DNA from: a virus
Strand: one strand, 5' to 3'
Virus record (IMG/VR): IMGVR_UViG_3300045988_101743
Location: 1 to 64,000 of that record
Length of the DNA: 64,000 nucleotides
The notes under the pieces were generated by a model, which was not told the DNA's origin, did no database searches, and saw nothing but the letters and a program-made list of their open reading frames with translations. A program made the position numbers and the translations under genes. Below are positions 22,636-44,051 of this stretch, in pieces. Each line of letters starts with the position of its first letter. The first letter of the stretch is position 1.

Positions 22636-23571
22636 TTAGCTAAACAACGCCAGTACCTGTTTGCTGATTTTCTTTCGAGCACAGATATAGTTTGACGTCA
22701 TTGTGATGTTCGGTACATTTCCGCTTATGTGGCCCATCATGATGGCAATCTGCTCCAATGGGCAACCCTTGAGCGACAGGAGCGTTGCGAAGGTCCTGCG
22801 CCCCGTGTGTGTCGCAATGAACTGGTACTTCTTCCCGACCTTTGTCTTGCCGTTCGAGAACACGGACACCTCGTCGGTTATGCCGCATTTCCTGCACATG
22901 TCCCTAATCGGTTCGTTTAGGTGGTCGTTACGAATGTTTCTCTCATTGTCGGCCCAATCGTCCACAAGGTATTGAAGAAGCCATCTGTGTACGGGCACAG
23001 ACACCTCTACGGGGTGTTTTTGTGGAACGTACGTAAGGTACTCTGTGCCGTCGATGGTGTGCAGGTTGGCGATCGTGAACCTTCGGCAGTCAACACACCT
23101 CGCGCCAGTAAGGCACTCGCGCATGAACATGAACTTGGCGTAACGCTCACGCTCGTTCATCGGCTGGTAGTTGTGCAGCCTCTTGAGCTCGGCGGACGTA
23201 AGGTACACGTTCTGCGACGGAACCTTCTTGGACTTGAGGATTGTTGAGAAAGTCTTTGACTTGATGGGTTTCGTGGCCGAGTTCCTGTTGAGGATGGCCT
23301 TTAGCTCCGCGCATATAGTACGAACGCTGTTTGGCGACATCTCGGACAGCATATCCTCCTTTAGGTCGGACAGGGTGTCGTCGGTCAGGTCCTCCCACTC
23401 GGGAGTCCTTCCTATGATGTCCCTAAGCCTTACAAGCGTAGTGATCCTGCCTGGATGCTTGCGACACCACGTTCCCGAGAACGAATGCCAACGAGGGTTC
23501 TCTACGGTCAGGAACCCATGCTTGATAGCGGAGGAGTATTTCTTCCTCTGCTCTTCAGTTAGTTGTTTCAT
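22636..23571 (-). CDS. Second tyrosine recombinase (phage-integrase/XerD-like), carrying the cassette-type upstream motif
   Basis: ATHTGRRTFATLL...EQIAIMMGHISGNVPNITMTSNYI carries HxxR and a Y nucleophile. The upstream element is catatattaaccaatatccattATG. Confidence 0.8.
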   Translation of the reverse strand: MKQLTEEQRKKYSSAIKHGFLTVENPRWHSFSGTWCRKHPGRITTLVRLRDIIGRTPEWEDLTDDTLSDLKEDMLSEMSPNSVRTICAELKAILNRNSATKPIKSKTFSTILKSKKVPSQNVYLTSAELKRLHNYQPMNERERYAKFMFMRECLTGARCVDCRRFTIANLHTIDGTEYLTYVPQKHPVEVSVPVHRWLLQYLVDDWADNERNIRNDHLNEPIRDMCRKCGITDEVSVFSNGKTKVGKKYQFIATHTGRRTFATLLSLKGCPLEQIAIMMGHISGNVPNITMTSNYICARKKISKQVLALFS

Positions 23572-23648
23572 GACTCATAATGGATATTGGTTAATATATG
23601 GCTCCGCACACCTGTTTCACAAAGCGTGCGGATGTTGGCCAAACGCCC

Positions 23649-24149
23649 TTAGATGAGAGATACGGCTGCCGTGCCGGACAGCTTTCCCCTCTTCTTCTCA
23701 ACAACATACCCTCCCATTATGCGCAACATAGAGAGACTGTTCTCATAGAAAGGGTTGTCAACGATGATATATGTTGACGAATACAGCGTACGTTTTTTAA
23801 TCTCTGACGCATAATCGCTGAACCCTTCCGCTCCATAGTTGCGAATGCTGTATTTAATCCACTCGTCGAGGTCTATGTTCATGGTCTTCCAACCGCGTTC
23901 CCTGTCTTCGTCTGACAAGTTCCAGTATTCGTGACGGTCCCATCCGTACTCTCCGTCCTTCTTCATTCTCTCAACCTCTTCGCCAGTCTTGATGTCGACA
24001 AAACGAGTACGTAGCACGACGAGCCTACTGTTGACGTCTCGCTCGGAGAAGTATCCGGCCACGGCGTTCATGAAGCCTGTTGTGTCAAACTTGTTCGGAA
24101 CGAAACCCTTCTCCTTCAGAAGGTCTTTCGCCGTGATGATTTTTCCCAT
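23649..24149 (-). CDS. Hypothetical protein (166 aa), cassette-type gene
   Basis: Preceded by cgtatattaaccattaaaacaactaagcatttATG. Confidence 0.5.
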   Translation of the reverse strand: MGKIITAKDLLKEKGFVPNKFDTTGFMNAVAGYFSERDVNSRLVVLRTRFVDIKTGEEVERMKKDGEYGWDRHEYWNLSDEDRERGWKTMNIDLDEWIKYSIRNYGAEGFSDYASEIKKRTLYSSTYIIVDNPFYENSLSMLRIMGGYVVEKKRGKLSGTAAVSLI

Positions 24150-25647
24150 AAATGCTTAGTTGTTTTAATGGTTAATATACGTTCGCAAAGGTAGGTAAAT
24201 TATCTTATAACAACCAACCTTTTTATCTCTTTAACATAATAAATTCCGTCTGGCTCACAGGTGTGCGCACACGGCGAAAATATAGGCGCACTCTGAGGGT
24301 AGTGTAGCGTTCCTGTACGTGTGTGGTGTGGAGTGTGAGACGGCACGGTTTAATGAAAGCGACAGCTTATTAAACGGTACCATAGCTCAGAGTCCACCGA
24401 ATTGAGCCCTCCTTGTGCGCCTTCGGCTGCTATGCCGAATCCATGTGTCAGACGGCGCGCCGCATGACTATACTTCAATGACTAATTATGCGTGAGTCAC
24501 GATGAAGGATCGACGTCTGAGGGATACGAAGACGTCGATCTTGATTCAAGAGACTCATGCTTAAGATAATGTCGTCCTTCACAATGGAAAACTGCGGTTT
24601 TTGAATTGGTGGGCACGCTCAGACGGCGTGTAGCCTATCTGTACGTCATTGATACGCACCCGTTGCGTAGTGAAATGGTCCGCGTTCGATTTGCACGCGG
24701 ACCATGATCCGTAACAAACGGGGGCATTGAATTGTCCGTCCTTGCGTGTCCGTAGGGCTATCTGCTTGCTCCCCTCATTGACCTTGGCGCAACGCTATAC
24801 TCAGTTGATGTAAGCTGAGGGATAGACCCGGGTGAAAGGATGTCCGTTGGCATCAAGGAACCCGGGTGATACCCAGCTTTCATAAATGTGGTCAAACTTG
24901 GGAAACTACCCATGCGTTTGGGTTTTCGCGATTGCAGGCGGCTTGGTACAGTCGTCTACTTGATTGTTTTGTGCAATACTCGCCAGAAGACCGACATAGA
25001 GGTCGTCTGGTTAGAGACTTGCTTGATAAATGATGTCGCTCGCCATCGCGCTTTGGCGGTGTACTCCGCCTATGGATTGCGAAACAGACTGGCGCATCGC
25101 TTTATTAGCTTGATATAACCCGCCTTCTGAAAGAGATGGTTCCTGAAATCGGACGTTCGGTAGAACATGCGTTTCAGTGCTCCATCTCTCTCCTTGAGAG
25201 GCGGCGTTATTGAATTTGCCCGTTCCTCATCCATCACCGTGCGCCCGGTGCTCATAAAGGATCCACTCATGGCACATCCCGCATCGCATTACGTGTGTGA
25301 TACGAATCCTGTGGGAATGACCGGATAATCCAACCTAAAGCCTCGCCGATAAGGCAGGCTTTGGCTCGGATGAGCCGGTTCACTCACCAGGACGCTAAAT
25401 GTTGTGCCCGTCGTGAAGCGACCCTGCGGTGGGTTTGTGTCTTCCGTCATGTCGCGTTCCACATTGCAATACTGCGTTGATGTTGTGCGGCGTTGACACT
25501 GGCATCGTTAAGCCCGGTGTGGGTTTCAAGGATGCCAGTGGGAGGCCGTCTTCTTCCAGCGCGTTAGAGCTGGACCGAAGACGGACGTACGCCGCATGCT
25601 GAATATGCGACCATTCGGAAGACGGGCCCTGCGGTGGGTCACAACCA
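24150..25647 (-). other. 1.5-kb ORF-free, hairpin-rich region immediately 3' of the reverse transcriptase: candidate retroelement RNA component (DGR template region, group II intron domains or novel RT-associated ncRNA)
   Basis: No ORF of 60 aa or more with protein-like composition, despite about 50% GC. It has many perfect 8-11-bp stems, for example gatcgacgtct...agacgtcgatc at 24511-24542 and ggtccgcg...cgcggacc at 24680-24706. A 13-nt direct repeat ccctgcggtgggt at 25422 and 25627 brackets a hairpin at 25546-25584. Confidence 0.35.
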
Positions 25648-26913
25648 TTAGAGGTTGGCGACAAGCGCGCCGTACGCGGCCTTGCTTGTGCGTAGGGCCT
25701 TCTGGGCGCATCCGATTGACAGGAAGCCGCAAAGCTCCTTGTCGACCTTCGCCCTGTTGGCCTTGACGTTTCGGCCACGGCCACGGTCTATGCAACCTAC
25801 GGCCTGTGTCTTGACGTACCCGAGGCCACCAACCTTCGTCTTGCCTGTGCCTACCGCACGTATGCAGTCCATGGCAAAGGCGTTGAGCTTGTCGATGTCC
25901 TCCTTGACATTGAGGACGGGAAGAACCTGTGTGGCCCACGAGAACTCACCGTAGCCCTTGTAGAGGTATCGGTTGACAGCGTTGATGGCTTTCGCCATCG
26001 TATTGCCGCGCTTCTTGATGGTCCTTCTCTCAATCTCCTTCTGGAAGGTCTTGATCCTCTTTGCGGAGAGTGAGATGCTCCTTCCCTTGATGGAATACCC
26101 GAGGAACTTGAACCAGTGGTCCGAGTCAAGGTATTCGACCTTCTTGGGATTGAGCGTCATGCCCATCTTGGCCAGCTCCTCCGTCATGATCACCATGGCC
26201 TCCTTGTAGTCCTTTCCGATGAACAGCGTGTCGTCAGAGTAGCGGACGTAGTATCCGCCGAGACGGGACAGCCTGTCATCGATATGGTACAGGACCACGT
26301 CGGCGAGCCATGAGGCAACGCTGCAACCCTGCTTTAACGACTGGTACTTCTCTTGTAGAACGCCTTCTGTGTCAAAATAGTAGTTGCAATGGTAGTAATC
26401 CCTGATGACATCAACGAGAGCCGACTTACCGAACTTGTCCTCGACCTTGTCAAAGGCCCAGTCAACGAACGCAAGCGGCACCGTGTCGAAATACTTCGAC
26501 AGGTCGGACTTGAAGCCTATGACCGTACCGTTGGCGGAGGCTATCCTTGTGGAAACCTCCTGTACGACACGGCCACAACCCAGGCCCTTTTGGTAGGACT
26601 TGCAATTGGGATGCACCATCTCGGGCATAATCTCAAACAACAGGTCGTTTGCGATGCTGAGAAGAATGCGGTCGGCAGGCTCATTGATATAGACGGTACG
26701 GAACTCTCCGTTGTCCTTTGGTATGAGCGCCGTGTGTGGCGGCATGATCTTGTACTTTCCGTCACGTATTCTCCTATACATCTCAGCGCGCGCCTGTGGC
26801 GTAGTGAGCCTGTACATCGTGGCCTTGTCCATGTCCTTGTCCATGCCCTTCGCTATGGCGTATTGCCAACGCTCGGGCTCAAAGAACATCTGTAAGATTT
26901 TGTCTTCTTTCAT
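25648..26913 (-). CDS. Reverse transcriptase (RT motifs 1-7, YSDD catalytic box); family unresolved
   Basis: IPKDNGEFRTVY (motif 1), FKSDLSKYFDTV (motif 3, DGR-like KYFD), KQGCSVASWLADVVL (motif 4, group-II-like QG), YVRYSDDTLFIG (motif 5) and WFKFLGYSI (motif 7). 421 aa, with the cassette motif aacattaaccaatagaattATG upstream. Confidence 0.85.
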   Translation of the reverse strand: MKEDKILQMFFEPERWQYAIAKGMDKDMDKATMYRLTTPQARAEMYRRIRDGKYKIMPPHTALIPKDNGEFRTVYINEPADRILLSIANDLLFEIMPEMVHPNCKSYQKGLGCGRVVQEVSTRIASANGTVIGFKSDLSKYFDTVPLAFVDWAFDKVEDKFGKSALVDVIRDYYHCNYYFDTEGVLQEKYQSLKQGCSVASWLADVVLYHIDDRLSRLGGYYVRYSDDTLFIGKDYKEAMVIMTEELAKMGMTLNPKKVEYLDSDHWFKFLGYSIKGRSISLSAKRIKTFQKEIERRTIKKRGNTMAKAINAVNRYLYKGYGEFSWATQVLPVLNVKEDIDKLNAFAMDCIRAVGTGKTKVGGLGYVKTQAVGCIDRGRGRNVKANRAKVDKELCGFLSIGCAQKALRTSKAAYGALVANL

Positions 26914-26986
26914 AATTCTATTGGTTAATGTTAAACATGTGCCCTACTCTTTATGTAGGGCTTAGGGCTACGACACATTCAAGCGC

Positions 26987-27478
26987 TTAGGCCTTTTGGG
27001 TTCTTGCCGCAAAAAGGAGTGATTTCCATTCGTCATAGGAAACATACAACTCGAATAAGTCGTACTTCTCCATACCGCACTCCTTTCTCTTTGCCACAGC
27101 GGTACGCCTGTTGTCGCAAAAAACATACACGTCGTTGTTGTCCCTGAAATACCAGTAGCACACGCCAGGGCCATTCGTGAGGAATATCTCCTTGTCGCGC
27201 TCCCACAACTGCTCTCTAAGGAGTAGTCTCTGATTCCGAATGCACGTTCTGTTGATGTCGTCGGCTTTAAGTGTAGTCACGAACTTGTGCTTACAACGCT
27301 TCTCAATCAGCTTGAGAAGGTTGGGGCGCCATGCCTCGTTGTCCACAAACGGGAAGTCTCTGTTCTGGAATGAATACTCCGTACCGCTGACGCTTACGTG
27401 TATCTCACTTTTGTTCTCAATGGGCGCGTTCTTGACAGCGTCAAGGAGGCTTGAAATCTCTGCTTTTGTCATATTCAT
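26987..27478 (-). CDS. Hypothetical protein (163 aa), cassette gene
   Basis: ttattaaccattaaaaatttATG upstream and a hairpin downstream. Confidence 0.5.
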   Translation of the reverse strand: MNMTKAEISSLLDAVKNAPIENKSEIHVSVSGTEYSFQNRDFPFVDNEAWRPNLLKLIEKRCKHKFVTTLKADDINRTCIRNQRLLLREQLWERDKEIFLTNGPGVCYWYFRDNNDVYVFCDNRRTAVAKRKECGMEKYDLFELYVSYDEWKSLLFAARTQKA

Positions 27479-27719
27479 AAATTTTTAATGGTTAATAAGA
27501 GAGCCGGCCATGAGCTAACATGACCGACTGTTTTGGCCCAATGTCGCAGGCATGGCGCCTGTCTTTAGTCTTTCGATCTAATAAGCTGCCTTCTGTGAAG
27601 GCTGCTGGATACTTCACACTAAAGGTGTTACCTTGTGTGAGTATCCACCGCCTTCGGTTTGAGAAGCTTATGTGAATTTTTGCCTGCCCACACTGGGGCG
27701 CTTGGCGTTTAGGTGAGCG

Positions 27720-28721
27720 TTACTTCTTTCTCCACTCGGCAATCTTCTTGTCCACGTCGATGCCAGAGTCCTCGATGAGTTTCTTCATGACGCCGATCAT
27801 GCGCCAGCCTTCAACGACATACTCGCTGGCCTTCAACTCAACAAAGTCGAGCGACTTCTTCTCGTTGAGGCCGGTGAAGCGAGCGCCATGGAACATGATG
27901 AGGTTTCGCATGGTGAAATAGGCGCCAGAACCCTTGTACGCGTTGATGAACGAACCACTGATATTCGTGCTTCTCGCAAGGCGCTTGCGGTGCTTGTTGA
28001 AATCGCACACCAGCTCGTACAGCTTGCGCGGAGACTGCTCGTAGTTGAACTTCACGGCGTAACGGCGAATGTCGTCATACAACTTCTTGTTGAGGTCGCT
28101 CACGAAGATGTTCCTGCCTCCAATGCGCACATAGGGAACACCCTTGCACGTGTGCTTGTAGACTTTCTTCCTCTCGGAGTTGAGGCGGTACATGAGTTTG
28201 CCCTCCACGTAATCCTTGAGAGTGTTGAGATAATCTGACGCCATGACGGATATCGTTGGCCCGTTGAACCACTGGTTGCGACGCATAAAGTTGGCCATGT
28301 CGCCATGCTTGTGCATCTTCATCTGAGCGCGAAGCTCATCCTCGACCATGCGCCACTGGTACTCATAGCCTCGCTCCTGAAGGAGCTGGTTGAAATTCTT
28401 ACCGGACTTCATGTTTCTGAGGATATGGAACATCTGTGCCATGACCCATCTGCGGAATAGCTTGTAGTGGTTGATGTAACCACCGCCAGCAATCTTCGTG
28501 TAGACAGGGTCGTCGTCGTCAACCATCACAGGAACTCCGTCGACGACCTTGACAACCATCTCCTCTCCCATTGGAAAGTAGTTTGATGTGTCAACGCCAG
28601 CCGCCTTGAGCGCCTCGATGCGAGCGGCTGCTCCCTTGGGCTTGTAAACCTTGGCGCTTGCGCCCTGACCGTTCATCTCTGACAATGTGAACTCACCTGA
28701 AATCATTACGTTTCTTTTCAT
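27720..28721 (-). CDS. Hypothetical protein (333 aa), cassette gene
   Basis: cattattaaccaactaaattttagcaattATG upstream. Confidence 0.55.
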   Translation of the reverse strand: MKRNVMISGEFTLSEMNGQGASAKVYKPKGAAARIEALKAAGVDTSNYFPMGEEMVVKVVDGVPVMVDDDDPVYTKIAGGGYINHYKLFRRWVMAQMFHILRNMKSGKNFNQLLQERGYEYQWRMVEDELRAQMKMHKHGDMANFMRRNQWFNGPTISVMASDYLNTLKDYVEGKLMYRLNSERKKVYKHTCKGVPYVRIGGRNIFVSDLNKKLYDDIRRYAVKFNYEQSPRKLYELVCDFNKHRKRLARSTNISGSFINAYKGSGAYFTMRNLIMFHGARFTGLNEKKSLDFVELKASEYVVEGWRMIGVMKKLIEDSGIDVDKKIAEWRKK

Positions 28722-28792
28722 AATTGCTAAAATTTAGTTGGTTAATAATGTTAAAAACATGAAGAGGAACGGGGTGTGAACCCCATGCCTCC

Positions 28793-29071
28793 TTAGGCTG
28801 TCCTGTAAACTGCATCACATTCTATAATGGCCTTGTATTTCTTAGGGAACTTGGACCATCCATTGTACGCCTTGATAACTTGCCTCGACGACCACCATGT
28901 GACTGCCTCCTCGTCAATGTGGAAGCATTTTAGCTTATCCGTATCGTCATACAGAACCCACTCGCCTGATGCAAGCACGCCTTCCCTTAGATGAATGGCA
29001 TGGCCGCCAGACTCCGAATACCGACGCACAAGGTCGTCAACATAGTGGTAGTCGCAATAAATCTTTCTCAT
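28793..29071 (-). CDS. Hypothetical protein (92 aa), cassette gene
   Basis: cattattaaccaaccaaagaacgtattATG upstream. Confidence 0.45.
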   Translation of the reverse strand: MRKIYCDYHYVDDLVRRYSESGGHAIHLREGVLASGEWVLYDDTDKLKCFHIDEEAVTWWSSRQVIKAYNGWSKFPKKYKAIIECDAVYRTA

Positions 29072-29140
29072 AATACGTTCTTTGGTTGGTTAATAATGCT
29101 GACAGGAACGGCCACGCTAATGGCCGCACCCGGAAAAGGC

Positions 29141-29614
29141 TCAATCGTTTGAATCCACCCATTTGCGAAGGATGACGAAATCCCTGTCGTTCTTGGACTG
29201 CCAGAACCACGTTCCGTACTCGTCCTTCCATTTCAGGGCACCGGTCATGACCGCTGCAAGCACCAATGATTCAAGCATGAACCTCGCAAACTCTCGCGGC
29301 TCGCCGTAAATCATGTCAGCGTCCGACAACTCCTTCTCGGGCAAAGCCTTGAAATAGGTCCTGCGGTGCGACTCCGAGCGCTCTGATGGCACGGACCGCT
29401 TGTACGCCTCGTAGCGAACCTCAAGGCACTTGATGATGTCGTGCCCCTCAAAATCCTCCTCGCTAACACCGAGGGGAAGGTCGTGCTTTCCATCCTTGAT
29501 GAGATACTTACCGTCAATGATGAGGGATCGCCTCTCAAGGTTGACATAGAACTTTGCGCCATTGCTGACGAGCTCCTCTGTCTCCTTTCCGAAAATCTTA
29601 TCCATAATAATCAC
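29141..29614 (-). CDS. Hypothetical protein (157 aa), cassette gene
   Basis: catattaaccaacaaacgtgattattATG upstream. Confidence 0.5.
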   Translation of the reverse strand: MIIMDKIFGKETEELVSNGAKFYVNLERRSLIIDGKYLIKDGKHDLPLGVSEEDFEGHDIIKCLEVRYEAYKRSVPSERSESHRRTYFKALPEKELSDADMIYGEPREFARFMLESLVLAAVMTGALKWKDEYGTWFWQSKNDRDFVILRKWVDSND

Positions 29615-29669
29615 GTTTGTTGGTTAATATGCGCCAGTCACGCCGTATTCCGGCATGGCTGGCTGTTGG

Positions 29670-29882
29670 CTAAATGTTGTCGGAGACAACACGCTTGTCT
29701 GTCGCCATCGCCACGCGCTTATGACGCATGGCGCCGGCCTCATAGACCGTAACATAACGGTACTCCTTGGCGAGTTCAATCATCCTCTTTCTCGCCTCCT
29801 GTCTTGTCAGCAAGGCTGAAGTTTGCTCTACGCCAAGACCAAGTCTGAAAACATACACCCTCATAGCGTTCATTACCACCAC
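29670..29882 (-). CDS. Small hypothetical protein (70 aa)
   Basis: ORF overlapping the previous stop by 10 nt. Confidence 0.35.
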   Translation of the reverse strand: MVVMNAMRVYVFRLGLGVEQTSALLTRQEARKRMIELAKEYRYVTVYEAGAMRHKRVAMATDKRVVSDNI

Positions 29883-30148
29883 GTTGGGATAAAATAGGAT
29901 AGATTCTTAGATTCTCTACGAGCTTTTCTTCGTTCGTTTTCATAAACACTTCCGTTAATACACTCGTCAAATGTTCTTGCAAGCATTGCGCCAACTACCC
30001 AATAGGCTGGTCTGTAGTCTTGTGGGACTTTGTCGAGGTCGATGCACCCAGACGCAAGAATCTCCTCTATGCACTTGTTGAACGTGACTGGGTCGCTGTA
30101 CTCTTGAACGACGTGGTTGCATTTTCTGATAAACTCTTCTTTTGTCAT
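29873..30148 (-). CDS. Hypothetical protein (91 aa, start MTKEEFIRKC), cassette gene
   Basis: ctatttaaccatagcattataattATG upstream. Confidence 0.45.
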   Translation of the reverse strand: MTKEEFIRKCNHVVQEYSDPVTFNKCIEEILASGCIDLDKVPQDYRPAYWVVGAMLARTFDECINGSVYENERRKARRESKNLSYFIPTWW

Positions 30149-30209
30149 AATTATAATGCTATGGTTAAATAGGAAAATCCCCACCCGCAAGAGTGAGGAT
30201 TTGTTTGGC

Positions 30210-30413
30210 TTAATAAAGAGTTGCTCTGTCACGAAGGTTGCCGCTTATATCGCCATCCTTCTGTAGTCCATCAATCCAGTCATTGAAATTCATGTTCAAG
30301 TCAAGATCGAACTTTGTCTTCTTCCCCGTGTAGTCTATGCCACACTCGTCACAAAGCTGCCAGAACGCCTTTCTTAGCTCCTTCTGGTTCGTGTAATAAT
30401 ACTTTTTTGCCAT
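30210..30413 (-). CDS. Hypothetical protein (67 aa), cassette gene
   Basis: ttattaaccaatcaaattttgaattATG upstream. Confidence 0.45.
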   Translation of the reverse strand: MAKKYYYTNQKELRKAFWQLCDECGIDYTGKKTKFDLDLNMNFNDWIDGLQKDGDISGNLRDRATLY

Positions 30414-30461
30414 AATTCAAAATTTGATTGGTTAATAACAAGATCCGCATTAAGCTACACA

Positions 30462-30619
30462 GGATCTGGAAAAAAACAGTAACTTTGAAGCCACTCGCAC
30501 GCCAAAGCATCATCGAGGGCTTTCGCTGCTTGCTCTCCCCAAACTCGCGGTTTGTACGCATCTTCCTTCAGATACTTCTCTACAAGATGCTGTAGTTGTT
30601 TTTTTTCTTCTGATGTCAT
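30462..30619 (-). CDS. Small hypothetical protein (52 aa, MTSEEKKQLQHLVEKYLKEDAYKPRVWGEQAAKALDDALACEWLQSYCFFPDPV), cassette gene below the ORF-track size cutoff
   Basis: atattaaccaaaactacaaattATG upstream; translated manually. Confidence 0.35.
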
Positions 30620-30701
30620 AATTTGTAGTTTTGGTTAATATTATGTGGGTGGAAGGCCATAGGCCAACCACCCGTAGGCTCAAAGTCGCGCAAATGCAGC
30701 C

Positions 30702-31238
30702 TTAGGCAGTGGCGCATTGGTGCTCAAGCTCGTAAGCAATCTCGGAGACAGTCTCCCCGAAATTGTACGTGATGCCAAACTTACCGAAGGTGTTGAAATA
30801 CCACTCTGCGAGATACGCCCTGTCCTCGTCGGCACGCTTACTGTCCTCAGCTGCGTCCAAGCGAGCGACCATTTGGGGAAACAGATCAAAGTAGTCGTCG
30901 CCATCGTACTCAAAGCTCCAACGGGTGCCGGTGATGTGCTCAGGATAGTCGTCCTTGATGTTGGCGAAATAGCCACACAAGCTATGGTCTTTCATGTGGA
31001 GGTACTCCTTCATCTCCCTGTTCACCTTGAAGGCGAAATCCATGGAGAGCCAGTGGATTGAACCGATGGAGTCAGATAGGCACTCCTCTATTTCCTCTGA
31101 GTTGTCGTAGCCTTCAAGGCACCAGCGATAGAGGTTCTCTACGGCTTTGGCAAAGTTTCTTACACCGATGTAATCGGCTACCATCTCAACGACATCACCT
31201 TTGCTGTCGGTTACTGTCTCAACAATGTTTTTTTCCAT
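30702..31238 (-). CDS. Acidic hypothetical protein (178 aa), cassette gene
   Basis: caaaccaaccaattatagattATG upstream. Confidence 0.5.
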   Translation of the reverse strand: MEKNIVETVTDSKGDVVEMVADYIGVRNFAKAVENLYRWCLEGYDNSEEIEECLSDSIGSIHWLSMDFAFKVNREMKEYLHMKDHSLCGYFANIKDDYPEHITGTRWSFEYDGDDYFDLFPQMVARLDAAEDSKRADEDRAYLAEWYFNTFGKFGITYNFGETVSEIAYELEHQCATA

Positions 31239-31301
31239 AATCTATAATTGGTTGGTTTGTATGGTGGGAAAGGGAGCTGCTACACTCCCCTCCCCGATGG
31301 C

Positions 31302-32129
31302 TTAGGAGGCCTTGTGACCGTCAAGATTGTGCTCGGAGATAACATCCTTGATCAACTCGTCGCTGTCACAGTAGAAACCCCAGCAGGAGTCCTCCTCCCA
31401 GTCGCAGCAATGCTCGCTGTCGCGCCCGTCGTCGTAGACCTTGGTGTACGGCACCTTGCTCTCAAGCGTGTAGCCGATAACGTCACCCCACATCCACTTG
31501 CCGATACATTCACTCTCGGACTCCATGTTGGAGATGGCGCGCTCCTTCCAACCCTTCGTCGGCGCACCGCACATCTTGGCGTAGCGCTCCTTGTCGCAGT
31601 AGGCAATGCCACAAACGTAGTCGCCCTGGCTGTAGCCTCGGGACGACCACTCGCATATCGCCACATCCTTCGCGCAGTCGCGCATGATGGTGACAAGGTC
31701 GTCGTAGTCGATGTATCCAGTGAGGTCACTTGCGCATCCTGAACGGAGCTCGTCCACAGTAAACGTTTCCTCGTAGCGCTTGTTGTAGCGATCGTCGTAA
31801 TACATGACGTGCCAACAGCGCAGCGACCTGTCATACTGGAGCTTCACGCTACTCAGACAACCACCCTTCAGGTATGACAATAGCTTGTCGTACGGGACGT
31901 AGTGGTCGATGAGGCATTCGAGCGCCTCTTCAAGCGTGTAGCTGTTGCCGTCGTACAGCACCTTGTTGTCAAACGACGAGTAGCTGGATAAGCGGCCACG
32001 GCTGTTTTCGCTAAACAGGAACACACCAGTCATGTCCCAGTCCAATGGACAGATGGGGGAATCGTCACGCCATACGCTGATCCTGTAGTTGCCAATCTCC
32101 TTTGTCTCAATTAAGTCTTCTTTGTTCAT
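31302..32129 (-). CDS. Cys/Trp/Tyr-rich hypothetical protein (275 aa), cassette gene
   Basis: ttatcaaccaacttaaattatacgattATG upstream. Confidence 0.5.
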   Translation of the reverse strand: MNKEDLIETKEIGNYRISVWRDDSPICPLDWDMTGVFLFSENSRGRLSSYSSFDNKVLYDGNSYTLEEALECLIDHYVPYDKLLSYLKGGCLSSVKLQYDRSLRCWHVMYYDDRYNKRYEETFTVDELRSGCASDLTGYIDYDDLVTIMRDCAKDVAICEWSSRGYSQGDYVCGIAYCDKERYAKMCGAPTKGWKERAISNMESESECIGKWMWGDVIGYTLESKVPYTKVYDDGRDSEHCCDWEEDSCWGFYCDSDELIKDVISEHNLDGHKAS

Positions 32130-32197
32130 AATCGTATAATTTAAGTTGGTTGATAATGGAGGCCCGTGGCGCGTCGAGGCGCCATAGGCCGAAAGGC

Positions 32198-32380
32198 TCA
32201 GTCGTGGTACGCTATTGACACAAGCTCAACGACGGCGCTGTCAAACAACGCCTCGGCCTTGTGGTCAACATAGTTCATCTTCCTGTTGTTGTGCATCTTC
32301 CTCGCGGCAATCTTGATCCTGTTGATCTCGGCGAGCAGGGAACGCTCAAAGTTCCTGTCGCAGTTCCTGTCCCTAAGCAT
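32198..32380 (-). CDS. Small hypothetical protein (60 aa)
   Basis: ORF. Confidence 0.3.
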   Translation of the reverse strand: MLRDRNCDRNFERSLLAEINRIKIAARKMHNNRKMNYVDHKAEALFDSAVVELVSIAYHD

Positions 32381-32398
32381 GGCGCAATCGTGTGTGTG

Positions 32399-32788
32399 TT
32401 AGACAAAAGCGCGAACGCTACGCTCCGTAGAGAACTCAAGGGCGAGCTCCCTCACACCGTTGGCGAGGATGTCCCACCACTTATCCACGAAATCATCTTT
32501 TGACATCTTCTCTGGGACATATCCCCACTTGACGCCAATCAGGCCGATCTCGTAGTCCCTGAACTCCAGGTTGAAGCACGATGGCAGCCCTCTGAAATAG
32601 TCAGCGAGCTGGCTCACCTTCGTGCCTCTGTACGGCCTATAGTACTCAGACAGGAATGTCACGGCGAGAAAGTGTATTCTCTCGCGTATGGCAGCGCGTT
32701 CGTTGATTCTCATGTCGTAGACAAAGCGAGTGCCGTATCCGTCTCCGTCGATGCAGTCGACGATGTACTCTTTCAAATACTTATTCAT
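32399..32788 (-). CDS. Hypothetical protein (129 aa), cassette gene
   Basis: ttattaacccataaagttttacgattATG upstream. Confidence 0.5.
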   Translation of the reverse strand: MNKYLKEYIVDCIDGDGYGTRFVYDMRINERAAIRERIHFLAVTFLSEYYRPYRGTKVSQLADYFRGLPSCFNLEFRDYEIGLIGVKWGYVPEKMSKDDFVDKWWDILANGVRELALEFSTERSVRAFV

Positions 32789-32866
32789 AATCGTAAAACT
32801 TTATGGGTTAATAACAAGAATGGCGCAGCGCACCTAAGCGCCACGCCACAGGACAGCTACTGCCGG

Positions 32867-33190
32867 TTAATCAAAGGAGTTGCTTGGGATGTCCCCAACA
32901 GAAAGGGGAGTCATGCGGATGAGATTCTTGAAGCATCTCACATCGTGCTCATGAAACCTTATCTCAGGATCCTCCACGTCTTCTATCGGAGAGATGAATT
33001 TTTTCAGGAACAGGGAAACCGTATCCTTGCTGATCCCTTGCGAGATGTTCACGTCAAAAGACATCTTGTCGTAGTCGGTGATTCTCGCAAATGCGGTGCA
33101 GTCGGCGACTGTATAAAACGCAACGCTGCTTCCGTCAAAAAAGGCCTCGTGTTCCCAGTCGCCGAAATTGTGACAGTCATAATAAACCAT
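32867..33190 (-). CDS. Hypothetical protein (107 aa), cassette gene
   Basis: attattaacccttaaattattgacgtATG upstream. Confidence 0.5.
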   Translation of the reverse strand: MVYYDCHNFGDWEHEAFFDGSSVAFYTVADCTAFARITDYDKMSFDVNISQGISKDTVSLFLKKFISPIEDVEDPEIRFHEHDVRCFKNLIRMTPLSVGDIPSNSFD

Positions 33191-33601
33191 ACGTCAATAA
33201 TTTAAGGGTTAATAATATGGAGGAAGCGCCCATCGCAATGAGGGCGCAACCATTATGCTAAAAAACAAATATAGCTGTAGTTCTTTGACAAATGGCAATC
33301 GGGTAGGAGGTAAATGCTAATCATAAAAGGCATTTACCTCCTATTTTCACATTTACCGACGTTTCTCTTGCGTCGTCAGGGCACTGTATCATAGTTTTTG
33401 CATCATAAACCTTGCCATTGTCTACGACAAACCATGCATTTAAGCGTTTGTTGTGTACTTGTAATTTCTTCATTTTTTACTTTGTTTTTGGTGAATAATT
33501 ATCGTACTACCCAAGTTGACTTGAGTAGTTTTTAGGCCGAATAATCCTAAGCACAATTATCGTACTGCTTGGCAATTATCGTACTGCCAGCCAGAGAAAA
33601 A

Positions 33602-33821
33602 TCACAGGCGTGGCATGAGCAGGTTTTCCAAGCGCAGAGTGGCGCGCCACCAGGCTCTCAGGAACGAACGCCCCAAGCGAGAGCCAAGCAGCACGCACGA
33701 CAAGGCGAACGTGTAGGCGACACCGCACAGCACGCACGCCACGCTCCCAGATAACAGAAGGGAGCAGGGAAGACACAACACCGTGGCAACAGCCACAGTG
33801 AACAGCGATCTAAAAGTATTC
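33602..33821 (-). CDS. Small two-TM membrane protein (73 aa), cassette gene
   Basis: MNTFRSLFTVAVATVLCLPCSLLLSGSVACVLCGVAYTFALSCVLLG, with caaaaccaattaaaccatacgattATG upstream. Confidence 0.4.
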
Positions 33822-33888
33822 ATAATCGTATGGTTTAATTGGTTTTGGTGGGCGAGAAGGATATGATAATCCTTGCGCCCTGTGGCAA

Positions 33889-34071
33889 TCAGTCTCTTAG
33901 GTGATGCTTCCACCGCAAAGCTTTGGCGTGCGAGTTCACAATCTTAAATGGAAGTGAATAAAACCACCTCCCCATTGCGTTGAGTTGGATGGCGTACAGC
34001 TTGTCAATACGCTGGAAACCACGCTCGCCATCATTGCTAATGGTGTAGCAAAAATACTTGTTGTCTTTCAT
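33889..34071 (-). CDS. Hypothetical protein (60 aa), cassette gene
   Basis: ttatcaatcaacacattggaattATG upstream. Confidence 0.4.
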   Translation of the reverse strand: MKDNKYFCYTISNDGERGFQRIDKLYAIQLNAMGRWFYSLPFKIVNSHAKALRWKHHLRD

Positions 34072-34884
34072 AATTCCAATGTGTTGATTGATAATGGAAG
34101 GCAGGCGCAGCGCTATATGTAAACGCCCGCCTGCCCATAAGTTTTAGCCCGCTGCCGTGATATGTGTGTATGTTATTTTCTTGTTCTCGGATACCACGTG
34201 GATAACCCGTGCGACGACCATTCGCGCACGCTATGCAGCTGCTGAGCTTTTTGGGTGCCCAGCTATTCGTCCCCTTTTCTTTACACGCCACGCACGACAC
34301 GTGGCAAGCTCTTCTTTCTCTACGCCAACGGCGTACACGCTACATGAAGTGAGTTAACAGCTCGCGTGTCCTTTTCCCGCTAACCACTGCGGGCGTACCC
34401 CAAGGAGATAGGGAATTATGATTTATGAATTACTCATTTCTCTCACGCTGCTCACCGCTCAACACGATAACCGCTACACGCCAAAGGTCAATGTGTACTG
34501 TGCCTTCGCCACGCCTGTCCTGAACGCCTACTCTCAACCACAGCTCTTTTGCTACGGGATTCTCAGCTTTCAGCGGTGTGCGGTTACTGCCGTTTCTGCA
34601 CATATCGCCGAACCCGCCCCTTCGCCACAACAGGACTAACGTTTCATGAGATCGACACCTACGCCTTGCTCGACGTCTACGGGGATCTCATTGCGTCCTA
34701 TCTGTGTGACCGTTGGCGGTCTGTGTGGTTCACAGCTCCACACCGCACACTCCGATTTATCTTCTCTTCGTGCGCTTTCGCTGTTTTCCTGTTTCGCTAT
34801 TGTTGTAGCTCATCAGTCACAAATAACCCATGGGTATTGTGAGACAGGTGTAAAATTGTACCTAAATTTAGACAATAAACAAGT

Positions 34885-34914
34885 TACCCCACCTTTTTAC
34901 GGGTGGGGTAACTG
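34885..34914 (-). terminator. Rho-independent terminator after the leftward gene 34937..35473
   Basis: gttaccccacc-tttttac-gggtggggtaac is an 11-bp stem. On the minus strand it is followed by ttgtttattg. Confidence 0.5.
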
Positions 34915-34936
34915 AATTACTGCTAAGGTTAAAGCC

Positions 34937-35473
34937 TTATTTGGTGGGCTGCTCAGTGGTGGGCTGCTCAACTTTCACACCTGAAGACTTAAGCGAATTA
35001 AACATTACCTCTACAGATACGCCGAAATATTCGGCCGTTTTTGAAAGCGAACCGCAAATTAAATATAGTTTCTTTGCGTCGCTTACCTTAAATGAGGATA
35101 CGGTTTTCACGGTCTCTTTCTCTATTGACCCGTTTACACTATCAATAAACAAACGTGCGAAACGATCAACGGTATCTACAACGGCGTTAATGCCATTTGA
35201 TGAAATGGCTGCGTTGTTTGCGTGTTCGGCGCAAAAACCTTTGTGCATCTTGCAATAAGTGTTTATTGCTTTGCGCATGCATTCAGCAGCAAACTTGCCG
35301 GTTGCGTTTGTTCGATAGTCTTCTAACAAAGAAACGTTTAATTCTTTGCGTAAACGGATAGTCTTTTCAGACTCCGAAAAATTAGAACCCTTTGTAAGAT
35401 TCTCCAAATCTGTAGCGGTTAACGTCTCAAACAGAAACGCAAACGCTTTGTCTCTTGTCAGTTTATAAGCCAT
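34937..35473 (-). CDS. Hypothetical protein (178 aa), first cassette gene
   Basis: Its upstream element ttattaaccaactaaattttagcaattATG is identical to that of 27720..28721. Confidence 0.5.
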   Translation of the reverse strand: MAYKLTRDKAFAFLFETLTATDLENLTKGSNFSESEKTIRLRKELNVSLLEDYRTNATGKFAAECMRKAINTYCKMHKGFCAEHANNAAISSNGINAVVDTVDRFARLFIDSVNGSIEKETVKTVSSFKVSDAKKLYLICGSLSKTAEYFGVSVEVMFNSLKSSGVKVEQPTTEQPTK

Positions 35474-35510
35474 AATTGCTAAAATTTAGTTGGTTAATAA
35501 TGTGCGATAC

Positions 35511-35616
35511 CCCATCGCTATGGGGGGCGCGCGCTATGGGGGGCGCGCGCGTGGGGGGCGCGCGCGTGGGGGGCGCGCGCGTGGGGGGGGCGGTTAACCG
35601 CCCCCCCACGTTGCAA
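35511..35616. repeat. GC-rich tandem repeat (about 15-16 bp x5: ctatggggggcgcgcg / cgtggggggcgcgcg) ending in a perfect palindrome gtgggggggg-cggttaaccg-cccccccac
   Basis: Five G6 runs plus a G8 run alternate with (CG)4. A 13-bp inverted repeat centres on TTAA. The block sits alone in a roughly 1-kb AT-rich ORF-free region. Confidence 0.85.
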
Positions 35617-43924: not shown

Positions 43925-44051
43925 ATTTGTACTATAATGTTGCAAATATATTAAAAATAATTTGGATATTGTGTTTTTATGCACTATATTTGCAGATGTA
44001 ATATATTTTTACGTCCATATATAGCAATCGCGCAATCAGAGGATTGAGCAT

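Follow-up and report, generated by a model that had tools for sequence, protein, structure and literature searches.

The early region of a gut (Prevotella-type) phage contains about 17 small genes spaced by one recurring linker of 60–75 bases, which, as read from its sequence, combines a stop context with an RNA hairpin and with a leader of idealised form for ribosome loading. The window, which is the whole 64,000-nucleotide stretch of viral DNA that was analysed, is best explained as DNA of a temperate, siphovirus-type Prevotellaceae phage that includes its leftward early region; the phage is placed in the gut-phage group that bears the UG27 reverse-transcriptase system. Our reading as a whole, which we hold with moderate confidence, is that of a polycistronic operon in which the linker would act as a portable adaptor and single-gene cassettes would be exchanged through short homology. 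The initial annotation had described the array and offered interpretations of it; its observation is confirmed, and its interpretations are partly supported.

Anatomy of the recurring linker

At all 17 motif positions that had been listed, the minus strand has TTAACC, or a variant differing by one or two bases, 15–26 nt 5′ of an ATG. The box is exact at 13 of these sites and variant at four (TCAACC at 32148, CAAACC at 31250, AAAACC at 33838, and TCAATC at 34088), and its distance to the ATG is 19–24 nt at 13 of the 17. A GC-rich hairpin precedes the box at 16 sites, with folds of the 62 nt upstream ranging from −14 to −27 kcal/mol; the sole exception, 24165, has a host-type −7 promoter box instead. 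Two copies said to be identical over about 30 nt match exactly over 33 nt, ATG included (28719–28751 and 35471–35503), and the modules of box, small ORF, and hairpin are indeed present in one orientation. The conserved parts of the motif are (C)(T)ATTAACC(A)A and (A/G)A(A/T)TATG, and the AAATTTT of the proposed consensus holds for only a few copies. The recurrence of the motif is not chance. A search with GGTTGGTTAATAA, allowing up to two mismatches, returned six hits against 1.1 expected, a number reached in none of 100 shuffles, with all six GGTTGGTTAATAA hits on one strand within 28736–35500; moreover, 11 of the 13 minus-strand occurrences of TTAACCA lie inside 23594–35497.

In 162 unique modules from the window and 24 related loci, TTAACC is conserved at 98–100% at five of its six positions and at 79% at the second, the spacer after the box is variable, and the box-to-ATG spacing is 19–24 nt in 91%. 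The leader frequencies in this sample are 0.91 for A−3, 0.90 for A−12, 0.82 for A−13, 0.69 for A−6, and 0.96 for T−1, and the hairpin ends 3–7 nt ahead of the box in most modules. The stop context is T(A/G)AGCC in the window and (TA)GCCTAAA in relatives, and it serves two frames, with an offset of −2 in 28 modules and of +3 in 22. By its sequence, the composite element comprises (i) a stop-codon box in a conserved context, usable in at least two reading frames; (ii) a GC-rich stem-loop, predicted to fold in the sense RNA and mostly without a U-tract; (iii) the box (C)TATTAACCAA, beginning 19–24 nt 5′ of the ATG; and (iv) a GC-poor, A/U-rich leader, predicted to be unstructured, with A at −13/−12, −6, and −3 and U at −1, ending in AAUUAUG.

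Upstream of the genes of two unrelated Bacteroides phages, TTAAC is not significantly enriched (6 versus 2.5 in B40-8 and 4 versus 2.4 in crAss001), and in distant UG27 phages it is only 2-fold enriched, so the box looks lineage-specific and may have a dedicated partner. Published translation-start logos do not account for the invariant CC in this otherwise A/U-rich leader.

Gene content of the array and its UG27 system

The array, read on the minus strand, is headed by a host-type −7 promoter box, TATCTTTG(CA) (35614–35621), identified by the TAnnTTTG scan and the sequence, and by a GC-rich leader, predicted to be transcribed (35521–35607), that consists of a perfect hairpin (GGGGGGGCGGTTAACCGCCCCCCC) and then 4.7 copies of a 15-nt tandem repeat. 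Cassette 1 (34937–35525; hairpin 35510–35525, box 35492–35497, ATG 35473) has a 178-aa ORF without a homologue among 24 close relatives, and the gene is followed by a 12-bp hairpin with a U-rich tail (34882–34913) that looks like a true terminator or attenuator. The 865 nt of 34072–34936 are non-coding and highly structured (MFE about −300 kcal/mol), with the second module at their 3′ end. Cassette 2 (33889–34150; hairpin 34096–34150, variant box TCAATC 34086–34091) and cassette 3 (33602–33880; hairpin 33850–33880, variant box AAAACC 33841–33846) encode 60 aa (family 28) and 73 aa (family 21), respectively; a 50-aa ORF (33321–33601) has three GTACGATAATT-containing hairpins and a variant box (ATTATTCACCAAAAAC) upstream; and an internal host-type −7 box, TATATTTG (33266–33273), lies upstream of the hairpin (33222–33251) and box (33207–33212) of cassette 4 (32867–33251; 107 aa).

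Cassette 5 (32198–32849; hairpin 32820–32849, box 32806–32811) carries a 129-aa ORF (family 8, PHROG 11100) and, 18 nt further on and without an intervening module, a second ORF of 60 aa (family 4). The 275-aa product (family 35) of cassette 6 (31302–32190; hairpin 32161–32190, variant box TCAACC 32148–32153) gave an AF2 model (pLDDT 85.9) with no significant PDB match and no known anti-defence fold. Cassette 7 (30702–31295; hairpin 31266–31295, variant box CAAACC 31254–31259) encodes 178 aa (family 18); cassette 8 (30455–30673; hairpin 30647–30673, box 30633–30638) a 54-aa ORF whose family is also met in other arrays; cassette 9 (30210–30467; box 30430–30435) 67 aa, behind a weak hairpin (30441–30467) that overlaps the 3′ end of the preceding ORF; and cassette 10 (29670–30202; hairpin 30175–30202, box 30163–30168) 91 aa (family 16), with a second ORF of 67 aa (family 49) coupled to it via an overlapping ATGA.

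Three array genes belong to the known UG27 reverse-transcriptase system, to which the large non-coding gaps can probably be assigned as well. Cassette 11 (29141–29663; hairpin 29633–29663, box 29622–29627) encodes the 154-aa small accessory protein, cluster 346 (RTas346, E 1.2e-50); cassette 13 (27720–28792; module 28722–28792, hairpin core GGGGTTCACACCCC, box 28740–28745) the 333-aa large accessory protein, cluster 337 (RTas337, E 6e-105); and cassette 15 (25648–26982; hairpin 26931–26982, box 26923–26928) the 421-aa reverse transcriptase (25648–26913; RT_UG27, E 3.4e-217, full length), which the initial annotation had correctly recognised. The window carries extra cassettes inside this trio: cassette 12 (28793–29132; hairpin 29103–29132, box 29088–29093), whose 92-aa ORF separates the two accessory genes and belongs to a family (84) present in only two loci, and cassette 14 (26987–27529; hairpin 27502–27529, box 27490–27495), with a 163-aa ORF unique to the window. 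Predicted folding and the literature suggest that 34072–34936 probably holds extra UG27 ncRNA units and that the DNA following the reverse transcriptase (24194–25647; MFE −565 kcal/mol over 1498 nt), ∼1.45 kb that are non-coding and highly structured, is probably a UG27 ncRNA array. The conserved structured RNA spacer at 27530–27719, in which 15 of 23 predicted pairs show compensatory changes across 13 relatives, is probably one such unit. A search of the window for a DGR-type TR/VR repeat found none.

Cassette 16 (23649–24193; −7 box TACCTTTG 24186–24193, box 24170–24175) encodes 166 aa (family 5), and cassette 17 (22636–23632; hairpin 23603–23632, box 23589–23594) a 311-aa protein (22636–23571) that Pfam (Phage_integrase, E 4.5e-7) and PHROG (integrase, E 1.5e-14) confirm as the motif-bearing tyrosine recombinase described earlier. 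The recombinase ATG is overlapped by an out-of-frame uORF, 7 codons long, that starts at the ATTATG of this module. A canonical terminator, a hairpin and then TTGTTTTTTG (21393–21419), marks the end of the leftward unit. The description of this DNA as an array of small genes, called here by a simple greedy ORF rule, applies to most of it, but not to three structured non-coding stretches (24150–25647, 27479–27719, and 34072–34936) or to the three or four genes at which the canonical module is missing (29670–29873, 32198–32380, 33321–33473). Most cassettes are ORFans, which is typical of an accessory early region and agrees with the accessory island that had been proposed.

Predicted transcription and translation

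In the intergenic DNA of the array, TAnnTTTG occurs only at 35621, 33273, and 24193, each time upstream of a TTAACC box and in two of the three cases upstream of the hairpin too; given these upstream −7 boxes, the TTAACC box is probably part of the transcript. The box at 35621 has the TATnTTTGCA form, as in the full TTTG-N-TAnnTTTG promoters at 36475(+), 43961(+), 11800(+), 18572(−), and 11950(−). In relatives, one TAnnTTTG box heads the array and none occurs in the subsequent linkers as far as the UG27 genes. The modules themselves lack the Bacteroidetes TTTG/TAnnTTTG consensus, and a simple U-tract rule is satisfied by only 3 of 16 module hairpins, with true U-tract terminators at 34913 and 21419. 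The promoter/terminator punctuation suggested earlier does not agree with these observations. Among the window proteins that were searched, none was identified as a phage RNA polymerase or sigma factor. Transcription of the region would most likely be by host RNA polymerase, starting at a small number of ordinary Bacteroidetes promoters, one at the array head (35621) and two internal (33273 and 24193), and would yield long polycistronic RNAs.

The hairpin and U-rich tail at 34913–34882 may halt much of the transcription begun at 35621, which counts against an operon. For the genes directly downstream of this hairpin, no canonical promoter was found.

We infer the operon structure, the RNA folding, and the role in translation alike from sequence. 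The hairpin zone has a mean MFE of −14.8 kcal/mol versus −8.1 for random 50-mers of the same loci, the zone from the box to ATG+12 has −0.48 versus −5.39, the box-to-ATG leader has a GC content of 21%, and folds of whole linkers give a hairpin and then a fully unpaired tail. With a median of 7 pairs and a loop of 5, the hairpins are short and almost perfectly paired, and their internal mismatches are mostly G·T/T·G rather than A·C/C·A (30 versus 4, p = 6e-6; 15 versus 4 across 61 stem groups), which argues that the sense strand is the one that folds. In its sequence the leader agrees with the published Bacteroidales start that lacks a Shine-Dalgarno sequence (A−13/−12, A−6, A−3, U−1): positive initiation determinants measured in Flavobacterium johnsoniae occupy the same positions (PMC6847099), as does the Bacteroidales/Prevotella start logo (PMC3155529), and such features are reported to favour Shine-Dalgarno-independent initiation in Bacteroidia. 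Compared with the Bacteroidales promoter consensus, as the initial annotation had proposed, the element gave no match, its ATG-proximal half being the generic translation-start logo. Further, a hairpin placed at −21 in Prevotella bryantii left translation uninhibited.

A putative endoribonuclease, of host or phage, might also cut the polycistronic RNA between the hairpin and UUAACC, in the manner of RNase III processing of T7 early RNA; the upstream fragment would keep a protective 3′ hairpin, and the downstream mRNA would receive a ∼23-nt leader starting with the box. This proposal, which we think unlikely, is compatible with the operon reading and would give the box a role. The hairpin-to-box distance that is fixed in most modules, the selection of hairpins in the sense strand, a leader as long as the modal Bacteroides 5′ UTR (23 nt in Bacteroides thetaiotaomicron), and homology blocks whose starts lie shortly before the box and whose ends lie shortly beyond it all speak for it, as does the position of the box at the extreme 5′ end of predicted primary transcripts (24193 and relatives), since processed and primary mRNAs would then start alike. 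However, RNase III would need longer stems, the cassette products include no recognised nuclease, and the hairpin-to-box distance ranges between 2 and 12 nt when the linkers of the window are folded.

That each TTAACC box is a −10-like element for an alternative host sigma or a putative phage factor, each hairpin ending or attenuating the upstream transcript so that every cassette is its own transcription unit, is in our judgement quite improbable. It has a precedent in the PeSLs of T4-type phages, in which a repeated promoter and stem-loop stand ahead of ORFans, and a lineage-specific rather than host-generic box would suit a phage-specific factor; the 19–24 nt from box to ATG equal the modal B. 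thetaiotaomicron 5′ UTR, so that the box could be the 5′ end of the transcript, and the hairpin-to-box spacers in the window are pyrimidine/T-rich. Besides the missing consensus and the lack of a sigma factor or RNA polymerase in the window, four points weigh against it: (i) the box lies 3–10 nt downstream of canonical −7 boxes (24193 and relatives), hence inside the transcript, where two promoters would overlap; (ii) at 35621 and 33273 the hairpin is downstream of the promoter, where efficient termination would cut short the RNA just begun; (iii) a −10-like element at −24 to −17 would start transcription at about −12, and the conserved A−12/−13 would be lost from the mRNA; and (iv) tightly packed late structural genes likewise have an excess of TTAAC ahead of them (16 versus about 2 expected).

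Cassette exchange among relatives

An exact-pattern scan added at least 120 further viral stretches to the window and the 24 related loci, and arrays of this type occur in at least 145 related viral loci. Among the matches listed, at least 673 modules lie on one strand and 6 on the other, and grouping at least 895 cassette ORFs (at least 145 loci) gave 91 families, the median length being 86 aa. Maps of the gene families in 25 loci reveal a common backbone with single-gene swaps, the order 8-4 of the window versus 4-8 in relatives, and displaced families 28 and 21. In the comparison that had been suggested, cassette content varies between relatives while the linkers stay alike; the opposite possibility, a generic host promoter with invariant content, holds only in that the motif includes a generic signal of the host, one of translation and not of a promoter. 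By this sequence comparison, relatives have exchanged, gained, lost, and permuted single-gene cassettes at the direct-oriented linker (∼17 copies).

Ends of blastn homology blocks fall within −60 to +40 of the box in 38% of cases versus 9.4% at random, a contrast that is partly trivial for junctions between different genes, which fall between genes. Among 54 distinct junction events, those with the same upstream gene break at +6 to +30 in 21 of 23 cases and those with the same downstream gene at −56 to 0, where pair counts are non-independent and linker similarity blurs the exact breakpoints. The breakpoints, spread over about 90 nt and thus at several points in the linker, point to short-homology recombination and not to a single site-specific cut.

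An integron-like system, as entertained in the initial annotation, would have the hairpins as attC-type sites and the 311-aa recombinase moving cassettes at the box. Such a system is very improbable here, even though the window and relatives alike have a tyrosine recombinase at the array end, each cassette consists of an ORF and a 3′ hairpin adjoining a conserved core, cassettes lack host-type promoters of their own behind a common upstream one, many homology blocks begin or stop beside TTAACC, and the permuted cassette order is hard to explain by simple collinear exchange. The recombinase is not IntI-like (18.8 bits with the XerA/integron-integrase model, cutoff 220), is co-oriented at the distal end rather than divergent at the head with an attI site, and in the window lies behind its own promoter (24193) and uORF. 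Moreover, the hairpins lack R″/L″-L′/R′ architecture and leave the box outside the stem, GGTTAAT and GTTGGTT do not fit GTTRRRY on direct reading, the strand that folds is, by the G·T excess, the coding (sense) one, and breakpoints occupy three or more zones, among them one preceding the hairpin, one at the box, and one past the ATG. That nothing special is present, only a generic host translation-start context and ordinary intergenic terminators repeated since the genes are small, is scarcely credible: the ATG-proximal half does equal the generic logo and TTAAC is expected more often by chance where upstream regions are A/U-rich, but the near-invariant box at a fixed distance in 162 non-identical linkers with varying neighbours, the strand asymmetry, the two-frame stop box, the 33-nt identity, and the absence of the box from LoVEphage, which has the structural module in common, and from distant UG27 phages, in which the genes are closely spaced, all contradict it.

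Exchange through short homology, which fits these data, is likewise the process that fits the PeSL cassettes of T4-like phages, a system that the array resembles. In the operon reading that we favour, the linker would be a portable expression adaptor, whose hairpin would sequester GC-rich upstream sequence and may stabilise or delimit the RNA, and the result would be a standard single-stranded ribosome-loading leader for any downstream ORF.

Organization of the repeated linker

The leftward early genes at ∼23572–35505 form an array of single-gene cassettes, and the initial annotation had placed one shared element at 17 positions within it. The element is present at all 17, where the minus strand reads TTAACC (the box) or a variant differing by one or two bases. 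The hexamer is exact at 13 of these sites, the variant boxes being TCAACC (32148), CAAACC (31250), AAAACC (33838), and TCAATC (34088), all on the minus strand; at every site, an ORF-opening ATG lies 15–26 nt past the box when that strand is read. A GC-rich hairpin precedes the box at 16 of the 17 sites, and the 62 nt located 5′ of each box have folding energies of −14 to −27 kcal/mol. Whole linkers, which comprise (i) a stop box, (ii) the hairpin, (iii) the TTAACC box, and (iv) a leader, fold as one hairpin followed by a tail that is fully unpaired as far as the ATG. This recurrence is not due to chance. With up to two mismatches allowed, GGTTGGTTAATAA has six matches compared with 1.1 expected, a number reached by none of 100 shuffles; 11 of the 13 minus-strand copies of TTAACCA fall within 23594–35497; and the linker copies at 28719–28751 and 35471–35503 are identical over 33 nt.

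Further sequence elements accompany individual genes of the array. At 33474–33601 (minus strand), 5′ of a 50-aa ORF, small hairpins contain or adjoin three copies of GTACGATAATT, together with a variant box, TTCACC, and the related TACGATTATG sits ahead of the start codons of three other array genes. In the linker of the recombinase gene, the conserved ATTATG (23572–23580, minus strand) is out of frame and opens a uORF of seven codons (ATG AGT CAT GAA ACA ACT AAC TGA), which overlaps the real ATG 8 nt downstream; this arrangement may hold recombinase translation low. In the transcript predicted from the −7 box at 35621, the opening segment (35521–35607, minus strand) has a perfect hairpin (GGGGGGGCGGTTAACCGCCCCCCC) and after it a GC-only 15-nt unit (CGCGCGCGCCCCCCA) repeated 4.7 times in tandem; such a leader is unusual for an AT-rich regulatory region.

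The leader and Shine-Dalgarno-independent initiation

We compared 162 non-identical linkers to define the conserved parts of the module. Five of the six positions of TTAACC are kept at 98–100%, and the second at 79%, while the spacer after the box is variable. The distance from the start of the box to the ATG is 19–24 nt in 91% of the linkers, and the hairpin ends 3–7 nt from the box in most of them. Relative to the ATG, the leader favors A at −3 (0.91), −12 (0.90), −13 (0.82), and −6 (0.69), as well as T at −1 (0.96) and −2 (0.79), whereas the corresponding frequencies in the window's other genes are only 0.41 for A at −3 and 0.52 for T at −1. From the box to the ATG, the leader has a GC content of 21%, and the segment from the box to 12 nt past the ATG is essentially unstructured (mean MFE of −0.48 kcal/mol versus −5.39 kcal/mol for random segments), whereas the zone 5′ of the box folds far better than random (−14.8 versus −8.1 kcal/mol). 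The stop box is read in at least two frames, with a TAG ending in the G of the box in 28 modules and an internal TAA in 22, and is thus conserved as DNA or RNA rather than as coding sequence.

Leader A/U positions promote Shine-Dalgarno-independent initiation in Flavobacterium johnsoniae experiments (Baez et al. 2019, PMC6847099), and the Bacteroidales/Prevotella start-codon logo contains A/T at −13 and at −8 to −6, A at −3, and T at −1 (Accetto and Avgustin 2011, PMC3155529). The array leaders match both the F. johnsoniae determinants and this logo. The linkers carry the full set of features associated with initiation lacking a Shine-Dalgarno sequence in Bacteroidia, namely an unstructured leader of low GC content that has U at −1 and A at −3, −6, −12, and −13. 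In Prevotella bryantii, leader structure lowers translation, whereas a hairpin at −21 is harmless to it. Bacteroidia initiation regions and the array leaders are both free of secondary structure from ∼−25 to the start codon, with structure tolerated further 5′. Two differences stand out: the published Bacteroidia logos contain no conserved UUAACC at −24 to −17, and the array leaders are far more uniform than those of ordinary genes.

Relation of the linkers to promoters and terminators

The Bacteroidetes promoter consensus consists of TTTG at −33 and TAnnTTTG at −7 (PMC7366714). A consensus scan of the window returned full promoters at 36475, 43961, and 11800 on the plus strand and at 18572 and 11950 on the minus strand; the promoter at 43961–44125 (+), TTTG-N20-TATATTTGCA, lies directly 5′ of a tRNA-Met gene and the head-gene block. 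On the array strand, a TAnnTTTG scan placed intergenic −7 boxes only at 35621, 33273, and 24193. All three lie upstream of a TTAACC box, and the first two also lie upstream of a hairpin, so the linker elements fall inside the predicted transcripts, which would be aborted if termination at such hairpins were efficient. In the relatives, a −7 box heads the array, with none in the later linkers up to the UG27 genes. The linkers do not match the host primary-sigma consensus, as they contain neither TTTG nor TAnnTTTG. Other promoter types fared no better: a sigma-70-type scan found nothing aligned with the modules, and an ECF-type promoter (AAC ... CGT) was rejected because the ∼11-nt spacing, read in six window copies, is too short. 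No sigma factor or phage RNA polymerase was matched among the window proteins searched. By their sequence, then, the linkers appear to be intercistronic elements, not host-type promoters.

Punctuation by terminators had also been proposed, and most of the hairpins lend it no support. An intrinsic terminator has a GC-rich hairpin directly followed by a U-tract, and this tract is absent from most modules, a simple U-tract rule being passed by only 3 of 16 hairpins. Canonical terminators were instead located at 34913–34882 and 21419–21393 (both minus strand). Two module hairpins sit downstream of promoters (35621 and 33273), and the terminator-like hairpin after the first gene may limit read-through from 35621; no canonical promoter was found for the genes just 3′ of that hairpin. 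Immediately past this closing terminator of the leftward unit (21419–21393), two clusters with a total of at least six iteron-like 11-nt repeats (CGCACGATTTC) occupy 20984–21108 and could represent an origin or a protein-binding array.

The pattern of mismatches in the stems (median of 7 pairs, with a loop of 5) bears on the strand that folds. Isolated mismatches are of the G·T/T·G type in 30 cases versus 4 of the A·C/C·A type (p = 6e-6), or 15 versus 4 when counted once per stem group. G·U pairs are tolerable only if the sense strand folds, which favors a role in the RNA, or at the least on the coding strand, over both an attC-like site of the bottom strand and a protein-binding palindrome in double-stranded DNA.

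Distribution of the array and exchange of cassettes

Homologues of the 333-aa protein, the large accessory protein of the UG27 system, were found in 153 viral contig stretches, as well as in prophages of Alistipes, Bacteroides, Phocaeicola, Muribaculaceae, and Leyella (Prevotella) stercorea. Among these loci, the array is confined to the closest clade (L001–L023 and the Leyella contig L109), whose members carry up to 21 same-strand TTAACC copies per 20 kb and whose 333-aa homologues are mostly 52–55% identical to that of the window (63% in L001). The clade linker is even more stereotyped, reading (TA)GCCTAAA, hairpin, CTATTAACCAA, 8–14 nt, and GAATTATG. The linker is absent from distant UG27 phages, in which the genes are tightly packed, and from LoVEphage. 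An exact-pattern scan of viral contigs added at least 120 further stretches, with at least 673 modules on one strand versus 6 on the other among the matches listed, and the cassette pool comprises at least 895 ORFs from at least 145 loci, in at least 91 families with a median length of 86 aa. Megablast against INPHARED found no near-identical DNA in named phages, and literature searches, by motif string and on linkers of Prevotella phages, turned up no earlier account of the linker for Bacteroidales phages.

ORF clustering across 25 loci bore out the expectation that cassette content would vary among relatives between conserved linkers: the loci share a common backbone, on which single genes are replaced, inserted, or deleted. 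More than one downstream family follows 24 of the 74 upstream families, and in the window, families 8 and 4 are reversed and families 28 and 21 are displaced relative to the related loci. Ends of blastn homology blocks fall within −60 to +40 of the box in 38% of cases versus 9.4% for random positions (a 4-fold excess), although it is partly trivial that gene-to-gene junctions fall between genes. With each junction type counted once, there were 54 events. Of the 23 blocks with a common upstream gene, 21 end between +6 and +30, ten ending just past the box and seven at or beyond the ATG. Where the downstream gene is the common one, the blocks start between −56 and 0: nine ahead of the hairpin, thirteen within its 3′ arm, and eight immediately 5′ of the box. 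The box is included in both kinds of block, and the breaks, which form at least three zones, lie within conserved boxes and not in unique sequence. In one example, two unrelated genes have the whole spacer in common, as far as the ATG. Several break zones, together with breaks in conserved boxes, fit exchange by recombination at short shared sequences rather than a single site-specific crossover.

Comparison with known systems

The closest known analogue is the PeSL (promoter-early stem-loop) of T4-type phages, with which the linker shares its logic and evolutionary role, if not its parts. Both are short composite intergenic motifs that run from an upstream stop codon through a GC-rich stem-loop to a ribosome-loading site and start codon; both recur at many points in intergenic DNA ahead of small ORFans in a hyperplastic early region; and in both, ORFs are inserted, deleted, and replaced between related phages exactly at the motifs. 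In PeSLs, exchange between neighboring motifs is reported to yield circular single-cassette DNAs, or mini-circles. PeSLs, however, include a Shine-Dalgarno sequence and a promoter matching the host sigma-70 consensus, and their stem-loop has been shown to terminate transcription (Arbiol et al. 2010, PMC2839356; Comeau et al. 2014, PMC4122927). In contrast, the linker contains no primary-sigma promoter (the −7 boxes lie upstream of its elements), its leader is of the Bacteroidales type lacking a Shine-Dalgarno sequence, its hairpin mostly lacks a U-tract, and it adds an invariant TTAACC box. The two also differ in host phylum, in phage type (temperate siphovirus-like here), and in scale (hundreds of gut virome contigs here). 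The feature is real and widespread, and from its sequence organization it is best regarded as a translation-level form of the mobile regulatory cassettes of phages.

The early region of T7 offers a partial likeness. There, RNase III cuts long double-stranded stems between cistrons, and the array similarly has hairpins between consecutive early cistrons of what would be one long transcript; the array stems have only ∼7–12 pairs, compared with the long RNase III stems of T7.

The integron-like cassette system suggested in the initial annotation is not supported. Integrons and the array both consist of one-orientation, mostly promoterless single-gene cassettes behind a common promoter, with a hairpin-forming element ending each cassette, variable content and order, and a tyrosine recombinase nearby; the array does work like an integron in the one respect that its cassettes lack host-type promoters of their own and have a common promoter upstream. 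Integron attC sites are imperfect inverted repeats (R″-L″/L′-R′) of ∼57–141 bp, with a GTTRRRY core in the stem. The array departs from integrons in its integrase, attC architecture, core sequence, crossover point, and folding strand, and it has no attI. The 311-aa recombinase matches only Pfam Phage_integrase, scoring 18.8 bits against a cutoff of 220 for the NCBIfam XerA/integron-integrase model, and is a generic tyrosine recombinase, not an IntI-like one; in integrons, IntI sits beside the array and diverges from it, with attI and Pc, whereas this recombinase is co-oriented with the array and located at its far end. The box is not part of the stem and departs from GTTRRRY, the breakpoints span −56 to +30 instead of marking a fixed crossover, and the hairpins are selected on the sense strand.

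Possible roles of the TTAACC box

The shorter motif TTAAC is also enriched 5′ of window genes outside the array, including late structural genes, with 16 occurrences versus ∼2 expected, a count reached by none of 2000 shuffles. That its TAA serves as an upstream stop codon was rejected, as it forms a stop in only 2 of 118 clade cases and 9 of 70 cases in distant relatives. Nor was a generic Bacteroidales-phage signal supported, since B40-8, crAss001, and LoVEphage show no significant TTAAC enrichment or strand bias; in distant UG27 phages, the enrichment is only 2-fold. The box therefore looks amplified in this lineage rather than like a generic host signal, and its constancy amid varying neighbors points to direct selection on it, not passive homogenization.

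The modal 5′ UTR of Bacteroides thetaiotaomicron is 23 nt (PMC7366714), which equals the box-to-ATG distance, and the box lies at the extreme 5′ end of the primary transcripts predicted from the −7 boxes at 24193 and in relatives. The UTR-length match, the 5′-end position, and the constancy of the box together suggest that it marks the start of each cistron's functional leader, where RNA processing, standby binding of the ribosome or S1, or recognition by a phage factor could take place. A stronger proposal, which we regard as rather unlikely, is that UUAACC and the upstream hairpin form a lineage-specific RNA signal read by a dedicated candidate factor, which may be a phage endoribonuclease, a translation activator, or a ribosome standby contact. 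If so, every phage cistron would have its 5′ end or its loading site set by this signal, cassette boundaries from comparative genomics would coincide with mRNA ends, and a new gene-expression signal would be added in bacteria that ignore Shine-Dalgarno sequences. In its extreme version, to which we attach hardly any probability, the UG27 RT would copy processed cassette mRNAs back into phage DNA.

The UG27 system and other genes of the phage

The window derives from a temperate phage. It encodes a CI-like repressor (12017–12697), an integrase (13038–14252), and a P4-type primase (36795–38348), along with an Ant-type anti-repressor, a portal protein, a large terminase that is 57% identical to that of the Bacteroides LoVEphage, a major head protein, and a tRNA-Met. 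A complete UG27 system lies inside the array on the minus strand, with full-length matches to the RT (25648–26913, E 3.4e-217), the 333-aa large accessory protein RTas337 of cluster 337 (27720–28721, E 6.1e-105), and the 154-aa small accessory protein RTas346 of cluster 346 (29141–29605, E 1.2e-50); its three genes are split by unrelated cassettes of 92 aa and 163 aa. The full-length UG27 match and the absence of a TR/VR-type repeat in the window exclude a DGR, and a group II intron type was rejected at 111.7 bits against a cutoff of 300.

Earlier work has placed UG27 systems in gut phages of both Bacteroidetes and Firmicutes (Mestre et al. 2022, PMC9226505). Their loci are reported to carry variable arrays of ∼150-nt structured ncRNA units (∼135–167 nt), which the three proteins copy into short ssDNA hairpins (bioRxiv 10.64898/2026.09.22.753630). 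Like these systems, the window combines the three full-length proteins with adjoining long structured non-coding stretches, which total ∼2.5 kb in three places within the array. Non-coding 24150–25647 and 34072–34936 (minus strand) fold very strongly, and a spacer within 27479–27719 (minus strand) is structurally conserved in 13 relatives, among which 15 pairs covary. Judged by sequence and fold, the three stretches probably hold UG27 ncRNA units, and their presence within the array coordinates is probably explained by the ncRNA arrays of UG27 loci; Rfam gave no match in the array, even at E ≤ 1. In L002–L023 and L109, the RT and the large accessory gene are separated by gaps of discrete sizes (∼226–243, 388, 487–493, and 696 nt), consistent with gain or loss of whole ncRNA units or small cassettes. 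The UG27 system is cargo of the array, as distinct from the repeated linker: distant UG27 phages have no linker, and in the window, extra cassettes separate the UG27 genes.

The remaining cassettes of the window are ORFans in Pfam, PHROGs, and PADLOC; Pfam and PHROGs named almost nothing among the cassette proteins beyond the recombinase and the RT, and four cassettes had no match among PDB sequences. Among 42 representatives of the cassette families from all loci, six matched Pfam (MutS_I, DpnD/PcfM, GP88, N6_Mtase, Peptidase_M42, and DUF7222). In the further array-bearing stretches (L110–L229), cassette products that are candidates for host takeover or anti-restriction include an orphan N6 DNA methylase, a DpnD/PcfM-like protein, and a protein with MutS domain I alone.

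Elsewhere in the window, a 2404-aa ORF at 50120–57334 (+) has no Pfam or PDB sequence match; its lysine/glutamate-rich, coiled-coil N terminus and its position after the tail genes suggest a very long tape-measure protein. Near the right end, a 9-nt periodic repeat at 62514–62767 encodes collagen-like Gly-X-Y triplets in a plus-strand frame, and the left edge (1–138) carries ∼5 copies of a 27-nt tandem repeat (GGTGGCCGCTGAACAGTCGCCTGTGTT).

Implications

As a putative natural, compact insulator joined to a strong leader that needs no Shine-Dalgarno sequence, the linker is a candidate part for expression in Prevotella and Bacteroides, and the box offers a simple handle both for the true starts of very small genes and for the pool of at least 91 cassette families. 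For the UG27 system, the arrays act as carriers, and cassettes inserted at the linkers can separate its three genes. The PeSL idea would extend from T4-like coliphages to temperate Bacteroidales phages, where a PeSL-like outcome would come from a translation-level adaptor instead of a promoter. More broadly, our analysis suggests that, in a highly abundant group of phages of the human gut, the early accessory region stays mosaic by means of a standard linker, which would let any small ORF be expressed where it landed while supplying the short homology for exchange.
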